Positions 22,998 through 53,002 of a stretch of DNA of 64,000 nt are shown one piece after another (within the stretch, counting starts at the first letter, position 1; each line of letters starts with the position of its first letter). The stretch spans positions 1,223-65,222 of the forward strand of contig CAZXEG010000001.1 of NCBI GenBank assembly GCA_964639835.1, read 5' to 3'. A model generated the notes under the pieces. That model ran no database searches. It had not been told where the DNA came from and saw only the letters and a program-made list of their open reading frames with translations. This stretch comes from an uncultured Candidatus Saccharibacteria bacterium (GTDB lineage: Bacteria > Patescibacteriota > Saccharimonadia > Saccharimonadales > Saccharimonadaceae). The translations under genes were made by a program, and so were the position numbers.

Positions 22998-25337
22998 GTG
23001 AAAGTCATACATACAAAATTTGGTTATCGCTGGGTAGCGAAAGTGCTGGGAGGCTGTGGGATGCTGGCGCTTTGTGCGCTGGGCGTGCTGGAGGTGCTTG
23101 GTGGTGGCAATGCTTATGCTACGAACATGGACTTTTCGATCAATGTCAGGCCTTCTGCTAGTATTACGGTCCCTTCTAACCCGGTGAATTTGTCTATTAA
23201 CCCTGGGAGTAGTGCCTTTAGTTCTGCTACACTGAATATAGAAGCTGGGACTAGCTATGATAATGGCTATACTATTATTATGCAATCCGGTCATAATGCT
23301 AGTGAGATTAGTAACTATAATCTTGTTAATACTACTGATTCTAGCTCTGTAATTCCTATGTTAACTACTACTTATACGGAAGCCAACTTCCCTGCTAACT
23401 ATTGGGGAGTAAAAGTAGGTAGTGGTAACTATGGTGGTATCGGTACTAATGGAGCCATCACTTCTACCAATACTAAAGGTGGTAGTACTGTACCAGTAAC
23501 TCTAGCTGCTAAAGTAGACTATACTAAACCAGCTGGTGATTATACTACTACACTAAACTTCTCCATTGTAGCTAATGTAGATAGTAGTGCTAGTATCACT
23601 AACTTTACCTACATGCAAGACGTTGCAAATCTCTCCTCTACCGAAAGACAGGCAGTAGTAGATGGCATGGTAGAATCAAAGACCTATACCCTAAAAGATA
23701 GCCGTGACCAGCAAGATTATACCATCGCCAAACTTAAAGATGGAAAAGTGTGGATGACGAAGAACTTAAATCTGGCTGGTGGCACTACCCTAACTTCTGA
23801 TGATACTGATATGCCAAGTGGTTATGCTTTGCCTACTGCTAATGGATTCCAATCTGGCAATAAACTCCCAGCTTCGGAAACCATTTCAAGCGGTACTACG
23901 CTGGCAAATAGTTCAGCATTTAGTGACAATGCCACCGCGTATGTTTTTAATAGCAATAACACTACTTGTAGTTCATCCTCGCCTTGTTATAGCTATTATT
24001 CTTGGGCTACTGTTACCCTTGGCTCCGGAACGGGGGTCAGTACGGATGGCGAGGATGTTCCTTATAGTATCTGCCCGAAAGGCTGGAGGTTACCTACATC
24101 AGGCAACCAAATCACCGACAATGCCAATAACTGGAAAAAAGGCGACCTCTATGCCCTCGGCACTGCATACGGGGCCAACTTGGAAAACAGCTACTACGAT
24201 AACTCCGTTACGACTGGCGCCAACTTCTATAATAATGCCGGGCCGGACGCCACCGTACCGAACTTTTTACCTGCAGGCAACTATTATTCTAGTTTGTTTG
24301 ACTATGGTGGTGACTATGGACTATATTGGTCATCCACTGTTAGTTCGTCTACCAGCGCATACAATCTTCACTTCACTTCCAGCAATATGGATTCAGCCGT
24401 AAGTAGTGATCGTAGTACCGGCAGGGGGGTTCGTTGTATATTGGACGCAAACGCGCCGACGATTGAGGATCTTGGAACGATGCAAGATTTTGCTAGCCTC
24501 GATACCTACGACAAGCAATCCGTCGTAAATAGCATGGCTATGGAAACTAATTACACTTTGAAGGACAGCCGCGACGACCAAGATTATACCATTGCCAAGT
24601 TGAAAGATGGTAAGGTCTGGATGACTAAGAACCTAAACCTAGCTGGCGGTACGAAGCTTAACTCTACCACTACGGATATGGCGGATGATTACGTGATGCC
24701 AACTGCAAATGGGTTCCAGGCCGATAATACCTTGCCAGCTTCGGCTACCAAGAATACGGGCGACAATAACCTGACTGATAGTACTCAGTTCAACATTAAT
24801 ACTATGGCGTACGTATTTAACTCTGGTACTACATCGGGTTGTGGTGCGAGTGGGCAGAACGTGCCTTGCTATAGCTACTATTCCTGGACGGCGGCGACAC
24901 TTGGCTCTGGCGTAGACATTTCGGCTGATGGTACGAGTGCGTCTTATAGCATCTGTCCGAAGGGCTGGAAATTGCCAACTGCGACGACAGAAGATGTCTC
25001 GCGAGACAATGGTGGCTACACCGGTGGTGATTTCTACAAGCTGATTATGCCTTATATGAATGGCGCTACATCGCTTAACCGAGGCTACTATGACAATACT
25101 AACCCGAATCCATTTACTACGAATGCTGGTCCTGGCACGCTTGCGTCGTTCCTGCTCGCCGGCGGCTACAATACCGGCTTGCTCTACAATGGAGGTTCCA
25201 TCGGCGACTATTGGTCTTCTACTTCTAGATCTGCTACCTTTGCCTATAGTCTCACTTTCCTTTCTGACGTCGTGTATTCAGCCAATATCGCTTATCGCGC
25301 CGTCGGTAGCTCTGTTAGGTGTATGCTCGCGGATTAG
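22998..25337 (+). CDS. Surface protein with two Fibrobacter succinogenes major paralogous (FISUMP, CLec-fold) domains; candidate DGR target
   Basis: Duplicated YTLKDSRDxQDYTIAKLKDGKVWMTKNLNL, CPKGWxLP, YWSST...VRC; GTG start after AGGAGG. Confidence 0.85.
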   Translation: MKVIHTKFGYRWVAKVLGGCGMLALCALGVLEVLGGGNAYATNMDFSINVRPSASITVPSNPVNLSINPGSSAFSSATLNIEAGTSYDNGYTIIMQSGHNASEISNYNLVNTTDSSSVIPMLTTTYTEANFPANYWGVKVGSGNYGGIGTNGAITSTNTKGGSTVPVTLAAKVDYTKPAGDYTTTLNFSIVANVDSSASITNFTYMQDVANLSSTERQAVVDGMVESKTYTLKDSRDQQDYTIAKLKDGKVWMTKNLNLAGGTTLTSDDTDMPSGYALPTANGFQSGNKLPASETISSGTTLANSSAFSDNATAYVFNSNNTTCSSSSPCYSYYSWATVTLGSGTGVSTDGEDVPYSICPKGWRLPTSGNQITDNANNWKKGDLYALGTAYGANLENSYYDNSVTTGANFYNNAGPDATVPNFLPAGNYYSSLFDYGGDYGLYWSSTVSSSTSAYNLHFTSSNMDSAVSSDRSTGRGVRCILDANAPTIEDLGTMQDFASLDTYDKQSVVNSMAMETNYTLKDSRDDQDYTIAKLKDGKVWMTKNLNLAGGTKLNSTTTDMADDYVMPTANGFQADNTLPASATKNTGDNNLTDSTQFNINTMAYVFNSGTTSGCGASGQNVPCYSYYSWTAATLGSGVDISADGTSASYSICPKGWKLPTATTEDVSRDNGGYTGGDFYKLIMPYMNGATSLNRGYYDNTNPNPFTTNAGPGTLASFLLAGGYNTGLLYNGGSIGDYWSSTSRSATFAYSLTFLSDVVYSANIAYRAVGSSVRCMLAD

Positions 25338-25346
25338 CGGGCAGTA

Positions 25347-25414
25347 GATAATTACCTCCCCGGTACCCACAAGTTCCGACCTCAACGCTTGCGGGTGCCG
25401 GAGAGGTAATTATC
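25347..25414. other. 27-bp stem-loop just after the FISUMP stop
   Basis: GATAATTACCTCCCCGGTACCCACAAG / CTTGCGGGTGCCGGAGAGGTAATTATC, 14-nt loop, no U-tract. Confidence 0.75.
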
Positions 25415-46702: not shown

Positions 46703-47437
46703 TTATAGCACTCTAGCGTCCTTGATGTCAAAATCGCCGACTTTGGTGCGACGGAGAGCGGTGAGATAGGCGCCGGTTTTGAGGGCTTTGCCGATGTCTT
46801 CGGCGAGGGTGCGAATGTAGGTGCCGGAGCTACAATGGACGCGGACTTTGAGCTCGGGGTAGCGGTAGTCTAGGATGTCAATGCTGTAGATTTCGACTTC
46901 GCGTGCGGGGATTTCGAAATCCTGGCCGTTTCGGGCGAGCTTGTAGGCGCGTTGGCCGCCTATTTTGATGGCGGAGAATTTGGGTGGGGTTTGACTGAGT
47001 TTGCCTACGAAGCCAGAGATTACAGATTGCACCGTGCTCAGTCTTGGAGCCGCGTCGAAAACCCCTGTCGCCACAGGGGTTTTCGCGCTTATGCTCGCGC
47101 TGCCGCGCTCCGCGATCTCCTCGACTGAGCATGGTGCAATCTCGTTTTCGATTGAGTATGGCGTAATTTCGCCTTCGGGGTCGCCGGTGGTGGAAACGTA
47201 GCCGAGTTTCAGGGTGGCTTCGTAGACTTTGTCTTTCTTTAAGAATTCGTTGGATTTTTTGGTCATTTTGCCAGAGAGGAGGATGAGAAGGCCGGTGGCG
47301 AAGGGGTCTAACGTACCGGTGTGGCCGACTTTGATTTTGTGGCCAAATTCGTTTTTCAGTTTGGAGCGGATTTTGGCAACGACGCCGAAACTGCTAATGC
47401 CGGCGGGTTTGTCGATGAGGATAATCTGGTCTTCCAT
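46703..47437 (-). CDS. truB: tRNA pseudouridine(55) synthase carrying an in-frame palindromic insertion
   Basis: IDKPAGISS, KVGHTGTLDPFATGLL, PPKFSAIK, CSSGTYIRTLAED. Confidence 0.95.
   Translation of the reverse strand: MEDQIILIDKPAGISSFGVVAKIRSKLKNEFGHKIKVGHTGTLDPFATGLLILLSGKMTKKSNEFLKKDKVYEATLKLGYVSTTGDPEGEITPYSIENEIAPCSVEEIAERGSASISAKTPVATGVFDAAPRLSTVQSVISGFVGKLSQTPPKFSAIKIGGQRAYKLARNGQDFEIPAREVEIYSIDILDYRYPELKVRVHCSSGTYIRTLAEDIGKALKTGAYLTALRRTKVGDFDIKDARVL
47024..47142. mobile_element. Palindromic element family B, copy inside truB
   Basis: 20-bp outer inverted repeat (1 mismatch), 13-bp inner hairpin 47056-47085, 29-nt core 47084-47112 shared with the lepA copy. Confidence 0.75.
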
Positions 47438-51064: not shown

Positions 51065-53002
51065 ATGGATAAGATACGGAATTTTTGCATAATTGCGCAT
51101 ATTGATCATGGCAAATCCACCATTGCAGATAGGATGATGGAATTGACCGGGACGGTGTCGAAGCGAGAGATGAAGGAGCAGTTGCTCGATTCGATGGAGC
51201 TTGAGCGGGAGAAGGGGATTACGATTAAGCTGGCGCCGGTGACGATGGAGTGGAAGGGGTATACGCTGAACTTGATTGATACGCCGGGGCATGTGGACTT
51301 TTCGTATGAGGTGTCGCGTTCTTTGGCGGCGGTGGAGATTGCCGTCCTGGTAGTGGATGCAACGCAAGGGATACAGGCACAGACGCTCGCGAATGTGTAT
51401 CTGGCGCTCGAGCAGGACCTTAAGATTATTCCAGTGATCAATAAAGTGGATTTGCCGGCGGCGGATGTGCCGGGGGTGGCGGCGCAGATTGTGAATTTGC
51501 TGGGGTGCTCCAGAGATGAGATTATTGAGGTGTCTGGGAAAACTGGGTATAATGTGGATAAAATATTGGATGCTGTGGTGGCTGAGCCAGACTTAGTTGC
51601 GGGGTCGCGTCGCTCGCGCCCGTCGACTGAAGTCGTCCGCCAGTCGTCGCCTCGAAACAACGAACGAGTTCGTTGTTCGCTCGGCTCCTCCGGCGGTCTG
51701 CCACGGGGCTCGCGCGCTAATCCTCGCGCTGCCGCGCTCCGGAATACCCCGCAACTAAGCCTGGCTCAGACGCCTACCAGGGCGCTAATATTTGATTCGT
51801 ATTTCGATGATTACCGAGGGGTGGTGTTGTATGTGAGGGTGTTTGAGGGGGAGATTGCGAAAAATTCGGAGATTTTGATGATGGCGGCGGGGAAGAAGGG
51901 GTTAGCGCTCGAGGTGGGGGTGTTGACGCCGAAGATGAGCCCGAGGGAGAAGTTGTCGGCGGGGGAGATTGGGTACATCGTGACGAATCTCAAGACGACA
52001 CGAGAGGCAAAAGTAGGTGATACCGTTACAATTTGGAATACCCAAGTGGACTCTGCATTGGAGCCTTTGCCTGGGTATAAGGATGTATTGCCGTTTGTGT
52101 ATGCAGGGTTTTTCCCGGTGTCGAATGAGCAGTATAAGGAGTTGAAAGAAGCGGTGGAGAAACTGGCGCTGTCGGACTCGGCGCTGAGGTATGAGCCGGA
52201 GAATTCGCCGGTTCTAGGCTTTGGGCTTAGGATTGGGTTTTTGGGGCTGCTTCACATGGATATCATTCGGGAGAGGCTGGAGCGGGAGTTCGGGCTGGAC
52301 TTGATTGTGACAAATCCATCGACGAATTACGAGGTGATACTTTCTGATGGAGAGAGGCTGGAGATAAAATCGGCGGCGGATTTGCCGGACATTTCGAAAG
52401 TGGCGGAGATTCGGGAACCGTGGGTGAAGGGTGAAATTATCGTGCCACGGGAGATGATTGGCGGGGTTTTGAACCTGATTAATGAGAAGCGAGGGCATCA
52501 GACGAGCTTGTCATATATTGAAGAGCGGGCGGTGATTGATTTTGAGGCGCCGATGGCGAATCTTCTGACGGATTTTTATGATCAACTGAAGTCGGTGACG
52601 AGCGGGTATGCGTCGTTTAATTATGAGCTTTCGGGGTACCGGGCGGAGGATTTGGTGCGAGTAGACTTTTTGGTGGGTGGACATAAACTTGATGCACTGT
52701 CAATAATGTGCCACAGGTCGGAGGCGGATAAGATTGGGCGAGAGACGGTGAAAAAGCTGAAAGAGGTGATCCCGCGGCAAAACTATGAGGTGGCACTTCA
52801 GGCGGCGATTGGGGCGCGGATTATTGCGCGGGAGACGATCGGGGCATACCGAAAAGACGTGACGGTGAAAATCCATACGGGCGACCGCGACCGGAAGGCG
52901 AAGTTGCTAGAAAAGCAGAAGCGGGGTAAGGCGCGGATGAAGCGGTTTGGAAAAATTGATATTCCTTCGGAAGCGTTTACCGTAATGCTAAAGCGAGATT
53001 AG
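51065..53002 (+). CDS. lepA: Elongation factor 4 carrying an in-frame palindromic insertion
   Basis: IAHIDHGKST, RGITIK, DTPGHVDF, NKVD, GFLGLLHM, KLLEKQKRGK. Confidence 0.97.
   Translation: MDKIRNFCIIAHIDHGKSTIADRMMELTGTVSKREMKEQLLDSMELEREKGITIKLAPVTMEWKGYTLNLIDTPGHVDFSYEVSRSLAAVEIAVLVVDATQGIQAQTLANVYLALEQDLKIIPVINKVDLPAADVPGVAAQIVNLLGCSRDEIIEVSGKTGYNVDKILDAVVAEPDLVAGSRRSRPSTEVVRQSSPRNNERVRCSLGSSGGLPRGSRANPRAAALRNTPQLSLAQTPTRALIFDSYFDDYRGVVLYVRVFEGEIAKNSEILMMAAGKKGLALEVGVLTPKMSPREKLSAGEIGYIVTNLKTTREAKVGDTVTIWNTQVDSALEPLPGYKDVLPFVYAGFFPVSNEQYKELKEAVEKLALSDSALRYEPENSPVLGFGLRIGFLGLLHMDIIRERLEREFGLDLIVTNPSTNYEVILSDGERLEIKSAADLPDISKVAEIREPWVKGEIIVPREMIGGVLNLINEKRGHQTSLSYIEERAVIDFEAPMANLLTDFYDQLKSVTSGYASFNYELSGYRAEDLVRVDFLVGGHKLDALSIMCHRSEADKIGRETVKKLKEVIPRQNYEVALQAAIGARIIARETIGAYRKDVTVKIHTGDRDRKAKLLEKQKRGKARMKRFGKIDIPSEAFTVMLKRD
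51582..51769. mobile_element. Palindromic element family B, copy inside lepA
   Basis: 24-bp outer inverted repeat (1 mismatch), inner hairpin 51656-51677, core 51713-51741 matching the truB copy at 27/29. Confidence 0.78.

Follow-up and report, generated by a model that had tools for sequence, protein, structure and literature searches.

A hairpin-bearing insert in truB

The locus lies within truB, which encodes tRNA pseudouridine-55 synthase, on a 64,000-nt stretch of DNA (hereafter the window; G000:C1:1223-65222) from a Saccharibacteria genome (G000; 745 kb, 53 contigs, 50.7% GC). The genus of this genome is Ca. Nanosyncoccus, a group of ruminant-gut Saccharibacteria, and 101 genomes of the genus were examined. 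The relatives carry the names Candidatus Nanosyncoccus or Candidatus Saccharibacteria and are MAGs recovered from the guts of goat, sheep, yak, buffalo and roe-deer. Coordinates of the features in truB, together with those of a sister copy in lepA, are presented in Table 1.

Table 1 Features of the truB element and its sister copy, in window coordinates
Feature	Position	Strand	Basis or remark
truB (tRNA pseudouridine-55 synthase), host gene	46703..47437	-	ORF, 244 aa; solved TruB structures match
Native arm, truB codons P-R-L-S-T-V-Q-S (PRLSTVQS), start of conserved helix (P, 12 residues, then F-x-G)	47024..47047	-	Alignment with alleles and model helix
Conserved core, 69 nt	47048..47116	+ (antisense to truB)	Covariance model R1, 79.7-83.9 bits; 29-nt block common with lepA
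Inner hairpin, 13-bp perfect stem, loop CGCC	47056..47085	.	47056-47068 pairs with 47073-47085
Small conserved hairpin GCGC-TGCC-GCGC, asymmetric right half	47097..47108	.	Consensus structure
Copy arm, 27-nt inverted copy of native arm, encodes EIAPCSVEE	47117..47143	-	23/26 nt complementary to 47024-47049
Older arm or tandem duplicate, encodes EITPYSIEN after conserved G of GEI	47144..47170	-	19/27 nt identical to copy arm, tandem register
Sister copy in lepA, long form, extra nested hairpin module in apical loop	51582..51769	+	Sense to lepA

The window TruB matched solved TruB structures (E = 5e-38) in two blocks (query residues 5-92 and 135-243) split around an insert, such that about 11 residues in the solved structures correspond to 42 in the window protein. 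We collected 96 truB alleles from the genus and measured their spacing from TGD to SA[IV]K. This spacing was 75 residues in the window TruB and 43-44 residues in 41/96 alleles, which are thus insert-free orthologs; the initial annotation, made from the letters of the window, had put the excess at about 30 residues, and this proved accurate. When loop lengths were anchored instead on the helix, using the conserved proline 12 residues before F-x-G, the loop between TGDxEGx and this proline spanned 8-9 residues in insert-free alleles and 40 in the window TruB, and ranged from 6 to 59 residues over the genus. The insertion site falls in the loop that joins the GEI strand to the helix after it. As this loop precedes the thumb by about 20 residues, the insert is not a variant of the thumb loop. 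An AlphaFold model of the window TruB, with 33 alleles as input, gave a pLDDT of 86.5 and a pTM of 0.81. Values of pLDDT below 50 were confined to residues 100-127, and the helix containing the native arm (residues 133-141) scored about 95. The insert is accordingly predicted to be a disordered loop on an otherwise confident TruB fold.

Parts, junctions and stability of the truB hairpin

The hairpin in truB is 119 nt in length. An outer inverted repeat of 20 bp and an inner hairpin of 13 bp had been noted initially; both are real, and the outer repeat is longer than first thought, with 47024-47049 pairing with 47117-47142 (26 nt at 88% complementarity), whilst the 13-bp inner stem is perfect. 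Folding of 151 nt around the hairpin gave -48.8 kcal/mol as DNA (z = -8.6) and -81.8 kcal/mol in the mRNA sense (z = -9.3), with 0/200 shuffles as good in either case.

The two outer arms differ in origin. The native arm aligned to the same helix in all 95 anchor-bearing alleles, insert-free ones included. The copy arm had no counterpart in insert-free alleles and sits in the low-confidence region of the model (residues 100-127). Of the two arms, therefore, only that at 47117-47143 is inserted DNA, the one at 47024-47047 being native truB. The insertion in the window thus comprises 47048-47143, i.e. 96 nt or 32 codons, made up of the 69-nt core, which in truB encodes IAERGSASISAKTPVATGVFDAA, and the 27-nt inverted copy of the native arm. 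The boundary between native arm and core can be placed to within about 3 nt, as the CCCC/CTCC end of the element and the native Pro codon overlap. Comparison of truB alleles with and without the insert, which had been suggested as a check, defined these junctions and revealed an inverted duplication of one flank; no direct target-site duplication was found in the filled/empty truB allele pairs.

A degenerate direct repeat (EITPYSIE/EIAPCSVE) had also been pointed out at one edge of the element. This repeat holds at the DNA level, as 47144-47170 and the window's own copy arm shared 19/27 nt in tandem register, a value reached by 0/20000 shuffles. We rejected its interpretation as a target-site duplication; 47144-47170 instead represents either an older generation of the host-derived arm or its tandem duplicate. 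The same segment shared 15-16/27 nt with the single copy arms of alleles L066 and L076, 14/27 nt with that of L069 and 8/27 nt, no better than chance, with that of L070. Its match to the equivalent segment of L071 was again 19/27 nt, and in L071 10 nt of core still lie between the two arms. An extra arm and a partial core beside a full element were observed in both L071 (truB) and L042 (pepN).

A family of hairpin elements across the genus

The truB element was originally described as a second copy of an element in lepA, in the opposite coding orientation and with unrelated outer arms, and each part of this description was borne out. A 29-nt core (47085-47113) has a counterpart in lepA (51714-51742) that differs from it at 3 positions, 0 such matches being expected by chance; the truB copy is antisense to its host gene, the lepA copy is sense, and their arms are unrelated. 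The shared core reads AERGSASISA in TruB and RANPRAAALR in LepA, from which conservation as DNA, not as peptide, had been proposed. This was confirmed across species, as one truB site is read in all three frames in related species (PVxTG, ARISA...PWRR, LRSAAAR).

A 19-nt core word occurred in 11 copies in G000. A covariance model of the core (A2, R1), built from nine short copies, gave 16 matches in G000, including the truB and lepA copies. All 16 lie inside ORFs of 219-958 aa that remain open across the element, in both orientations and several frames, and the hosts include truB, lepA, leuS, gatA, a TatD-like hydrolase and aminopeptidase N. Across the genus, R1 matches were found in 81/101 genomes, about 790 in all, and 20/101 genomes had no match. 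The truB feature is therefore very probably one copy of a genus-wide family of GC-rich hairpin elements, roughly 80 nt in size, of Ca. Nanosyncoccus. A literature search for in-frame palindromes in Saccharibacteria or Patescibacteria returned nothing relevant.

Copies share a conserved core with conserved terminal inverted repeats (CTCGGGG/CCCCGAG). Outer arms, 13-25 nt long, are unique to each copy and mutually complementary, and the inner stem differs between copies yet stays paired. Across 95 aligned copies, 96.6% of pair cells were standard pairs vs 79.4% in shuffles, and 21/28 pairs had changed on both sides, with almost no pair passing through one-sided G·U intermediates. Compensation was full in the inner stem (11/15 pairs changed on both sides, 97.6% of cells paired), and the small GCGC-TGCC-GCGC hairpin (helix 5) was 100% paired. 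At pepN, copies in three species had different but fully compensated inner stems, and one of these species carried an extra arm and a partial core.

Two other species also carry an element at the lepA site of the window, and a third has a decayed one there. The long-form elements, represented by the lepA copy (window 51582-51769) and by L026 (G000:C15:4806-4940), have an additional hairpin module, about 75 nt long, nested within the loop at the apex of the inner hairpin; one element can therefore harbour another. Separately, four weaker model matches of 26-43 bits (G000:C20:7131-7217, C11:20162-20242, C13:3886-3970 and C9:22456-22532) share the inner hairpin, have a different right half and lie in frame within long ORFs, which points to sister subfamilies.

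Reading frame and probable translation of the insert

The reading frame was kept in every coding copy, i.e. 16/16 copies in G000 and 18/29 and 38/47 copies in two samples from the genus. The remaining copies of the 29- and 47-copy samples (9-11/29 and 9/47, respectively) lie in, or at the edge of, intergenic DNA. Counting the core in coding versus intergenic DNA had been proposed at the outset, and the result led us to reject the idea that the element occurs in coding DNA only, which is true for G000 (16/16) and not for the genus. In truB, the insert is exactly 32 codons long, and across species the same site is read in three frames without stops. RNA-level removal would impose no constraint on length or frame, and we therefore infer from frame conservation that the insert is probably translated, as a floppy loop tolerated by TruB.

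Repeated gain, loss or exchange, and decay, at the truB site

An element at the window position, antisense and with its core end abutting the helix proline, was present in 16 truB alleles. A second position, about seven codons upstream, is occupied in L004, L072 and L079 and has clean empty partners in L094, L095 and L098; here again, native sequence makes up the downstream arm and its inverted copy the upstream one. Four alleles from other clades carry the element in sense orientation. In a quick TruB tree, all antisense carriers fell within one clade (97% support) that also holds 19 insert-free alleles, and well-supported branches within this clade force at least 4 changes of state. The truB site has therefore been hit, lost or exchanged repeatedly, the gene tree being weakly supported overall such that repeated gain is not firmly separable from loss or allele exchange. 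A single ancestral insertion in truB was rejected given the at least 4 state changes, at least 2 insertion positions and two orientations.

Five alleles with 30-residue loops (L066, L069, L070, L074 and L076) inform on how the copy arm is placed. In all five, the conserved GEI codons mark the exact start of the copy arm. These codons have a natural complement in the native arm, TTGAATCT, and the alleles lack the native loop of 8 residues.

Decayed copies were also identified. The truB of G012 (L013:about 1900-2050) retains the last 9 nt of the core and four extra codons, and the lepA of G002 (L062) has kept both arms and the CTCGGGG/TCCGAG ends and lost the core. Internal deletion thus seems to turn elements into short permanent loop extensions, and it can be concluded fairly safely that the element persists as selfish DNA, decaying by internal deletion. 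The core of the window truB copy was 66-69% identical to those of L003 and L076, below the 70-80% of the flanks; by this comparison the window copy is fairly old and diverged.

Another copy of the element lies about 1 kb from truB, in a neighbouring gene and at a similar relative position, in three related genomes (L012:2787-2865, L013:3024-3108 and L014:2767-2851).

Orientation and strand bias

GC skew in G000 was about ±0.3 in every 5-kb interval, and its sign was constant along each contig (contigs C1-C8). Since this skew is strong and has one sign per contig, we took it as a replication-strand signal, i.e. as a stand-in for the direction of replication. In the + orientation of the element, flanking GC skew was positive in 31/37 copies (mean +0.15) and in 37/47 copies of an independent second set. 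When orthologous sites were merged, skew was positive at 46/55 distinct sites (binomial P = 4e-7).

A strand bias was also apparent within the arms. Transition mismatches favoured G·T wobbles on the minus strand of the element in both sets (46:9 and 32:9; 78:18 pooled), and the excess was on that strand whether copies were sense (22:3), antisense (11:3) or intergenic (9:2). As the bias is independent of host-gene direction, the relevant pairing is that of the element's own strand, not of the host mRNA. One arm usually contains an extra nucleotide (a 1-nt bulge) 6-10 nt from the core, and this is seen in intergenic copies too. From hand-picked cases it had seemed that the copy arm might be recognisable by a signature of polymerase G·T errors, an idea discarded when a count in 19 truB alleles came out the other way (10:5).

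A proposed mode of spread

These facts appear to fit a replication-coupled, single-strand process better than cut-and-paste transposition. The best explanation as a whole, to which we give somewhat better than even credence, is a genus-wide hairpin element carried in frame, with one arm derived from the host and with spread coupled to replication in the absence of a transposase of its own.

Known processes offer a partial precedent. In quasipalindrome template switching (the Ripley model; FoSTeS/MMBIR), the nascent strand is extended on the wrong template across an inverted repeat. Such mutagenesis creates or perfects palindromes, has its junctions at microhomologies and depends on the replication strand. 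It acts at single loci, and no case is known to us in which it has spread a conserved 70-nt core over hundreds of sites.

We tentatively suggest a replication-coupled template-switch mechanism for the element, a model built after the fact that may well be wrong in this form. The nascent strand would leave its template at a short inverted microhomology and copy the adjacent host sequence backwards, producing the arm. Via the TCGGGG/CCCCGA ends it would next switch to a core at another genomic location, before returning to the original template at a CCnGA-like target. The relevant form would be the single-stranded hairpin of one particular strand, and both spread and renewal would take place during replication, without a transposase of the element's own. 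If this enzyme-free reading were true, it would make sense of the inverted copy of the flank, the absence of the native loop from the 30-residue-loop alleles, the re-use of sites, the replication-locked orientation and the wobbles confined largely to one strand. It leaves unexplained the recurrent 1-nt bulge in one arm and the uniformity of the core across species. The further step, that the element represents a new kind of mobile DNA without an enzyme of its own, a single-stranded hairpin copied at the fork with a stem built and rebuilt from host sequence, is more speculative again, and we put it forward with considerable doubt.

Alternative explanations

A conventional MITE, i.e. the deletion derivative of an insertion sequence, mobilised in trans by a transposase with specificity for the CTCGGGG/CCCCGAG ends, with the arms as a by-product of repair, is an unlikely origin for the family. 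The resemblance to classical bacterial MITEs (Correia/NEMIS, ERIC, BOX, RUP) is considerable, in that both are small, non-autonomous and dispersed, have terminal inverted repeats and form hairpins, and those MITEs too are occasionally found in genes. Here, the core ends are conserved short inverted repeats, copies number in the hundreds, and orientation is biased relative to replication as in single-strand transposons of the IS200/IS605 type. However, a MITE is flanked by direct target-site duplications and derives from a parent insertion sequence, and neither was found for the Nanosyncoccus element in searches that covered Y1_Tnp and DDE_5. The duplication in filled/empty allele pairs is inverted, and the left and right halves of all 11 core matches in G000 are at most about 120 nt apart, with no long autonomous version among them. 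Y1_Tnp (PF01797, Y1 HUH) was present in 7/101 genomes of the genus and absent from 94/101, G000 included, and DDE_5 (IS701-type) in 0/101. RVT_1 occurred in 68/101 genomes and was unrelated to copy number, as G010 (20 copies) and G068 (11 copies) both have no reverse transcriptase. None of these three families tracks the element. A mobilising enzyme of another family, or one supplied by a phage or by the host bacterium, may conceivably be involved.

The 745-kb genome G000 itself contains four reverse-transcriptase genes (C36:2532-3236, C12:15921-16541, C7:11220-11621 and C3:28107-28640), which are probably of the diversity-generating retroelement (DGR) type. A DGR-like variable region was noted in the first reading of the window at 25158-25414.

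IS200/IS605 transposons, and REP/BIME sequences with their RAYT (Y1 HUH), bear on the orientation bias from another side. In both, the active form is an imperfect hairpin of one DNA strand, and the orientation of the elements correlates with replication direction. The Nanosyncoccus element is similarly strand-specific, with its + strand on the G-rich strand at the 46/55 sites and wobbles at 78:18. In contrast to these systems, most Nanosyncoccus genomes have no Y1 transposase (7/101 have one). Furthermore, IS200/IS605 and REP elements make no inverted copy of flanking host sequence, and REPs are intergenic.

Adoption of the hairpin by the host, either as a DNA-level replication, recombination or nucleoid signal or as an RNA-processing or translational-pausing site, is quite improbable. 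Such a function would be consistent with pairing maintained by changes on both sides, with an orientation tied to the replication strand and with the recurrent 1-nt bulge. The core was also somewhat better conserved than the flanks at 3/4 orthologous pairs outside truB (identities of 0.89-0.92 vs 0.76-0.85). This effect was mild and limited to pepN and two other sites, whereas at truB the core was less conserved than its flanks (0.66-0.69 vs 0.70-0.80), and we therefore rejected the broader claim of a core much more conserved than its host gene. A host role is also opposed by a patchy distribution, seen even among sister alleles, by the 20/101 genomes with no match and by the decay of copies through deletion. 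A role in mRNA faces the further difficulty that the wobble strand does not follow host transcription.

It is very unlikely indeed that the insert is an intervening sequence, cut out at the mRNA or protein level such that mature TruB would be without it. The mRNA hairpin is very stable (-81.8 kcal/mol) and CPR bacteria are known for insertions in rRNA genes, but all 16 copies in G000 keep the frame, for which the chance on length alone is (1/3)^16, and excision of the whole hairpin would delete eight native helix residues. No intron, ribozyme or intein signature was found in the element, an Rfam search with the truB and lepA copies (E up to 10) gave chance-level matches only, and an intein is ruled out by the size of 32 residues and the use of three frames. 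Finally, ordinary variation in TruB loop length with a chance palindrome, to which the range of 6 to 59 residues over the genus might have lent itself, was refuted by the R1 score of about 80 bits (E about 1e-15 to 1e-17), the same core in 15 other G000 genes and the folding z-scores of -8.6 and -9.3.

Relation to Rickettsia palindromic elements and significance

In its behaviour, the Nanosyncoccus element has its closest known relatives in the Rickettsia palindromic elements RPE-1 to RPE-10 (Ogata et al. 2000, 2002; summarised in PMC10969869), each family of which is described as encoding a conserved peptide. Both are hairpin-forming repeats of about 100-150 nt, present in many copies in bacteria with very small genomes, and both lie in frame in unrelated housekeeping genes, where they seem to be translated into surface segments that the protein tolerates; for neither is a transposase known. 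They differ in host phylum and are probably unrelated in sequence. In RPEs it is the peptide that is conserved, whereas the Nanosyncoccus element is conserved in nucleotide sequence and structure only. Half of the outer stem of the Nanosyncoccus element is, moreover, host sequence. We know of no report for RPEs of an orientation tied to GC skew, of a strand-specific wobble bias or of a recurrent bulge. What is new here is the orientation that follows GC skew, the strand-specific wobble bias and the lack of tracking by Y1, IS701-type or reverse-transcriptase genes.

Hundreds of these hairpins are located in essential genes of Saccharibacteria, whose genomes are among the smallest in bacteria, and TruB, LepA, LeuRS and GatA are lengthened by them. 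With Rickettsia as the first, this would be another and independent instance of selfish palindromes whose survival depends on their remaining translatable; the elements supply loop insertions and short leftover peptides, and thereby feed the evolution of proteins in reduced genomes. Three features point to single-stranded, replication-linked spread, namely the stem of host origin, the orientation along the replication strand and pairing that is specific to one strand. Such spread is testable now that Saccharibacteria are culturable and transformable. Gene callers and alignment-based phylogenies of the phylum should expect such inserts.

Length variation in TruB extends beyond the loop described above. 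A second variable site, in the N-terminal region between the first helix and the KVGHTGTLDP motif, was seen in L007, L010, L011 and L019, with 15-25 extra residues in some species, e.g. FIEVKGRDGVVRQRRK. In addition, G082 contains two different truB genes with different loop inserts (L081 = G082:C12 and L142 = G082:C7), which could be due to contamination (3% by the quality figure) or to two strains binned together.
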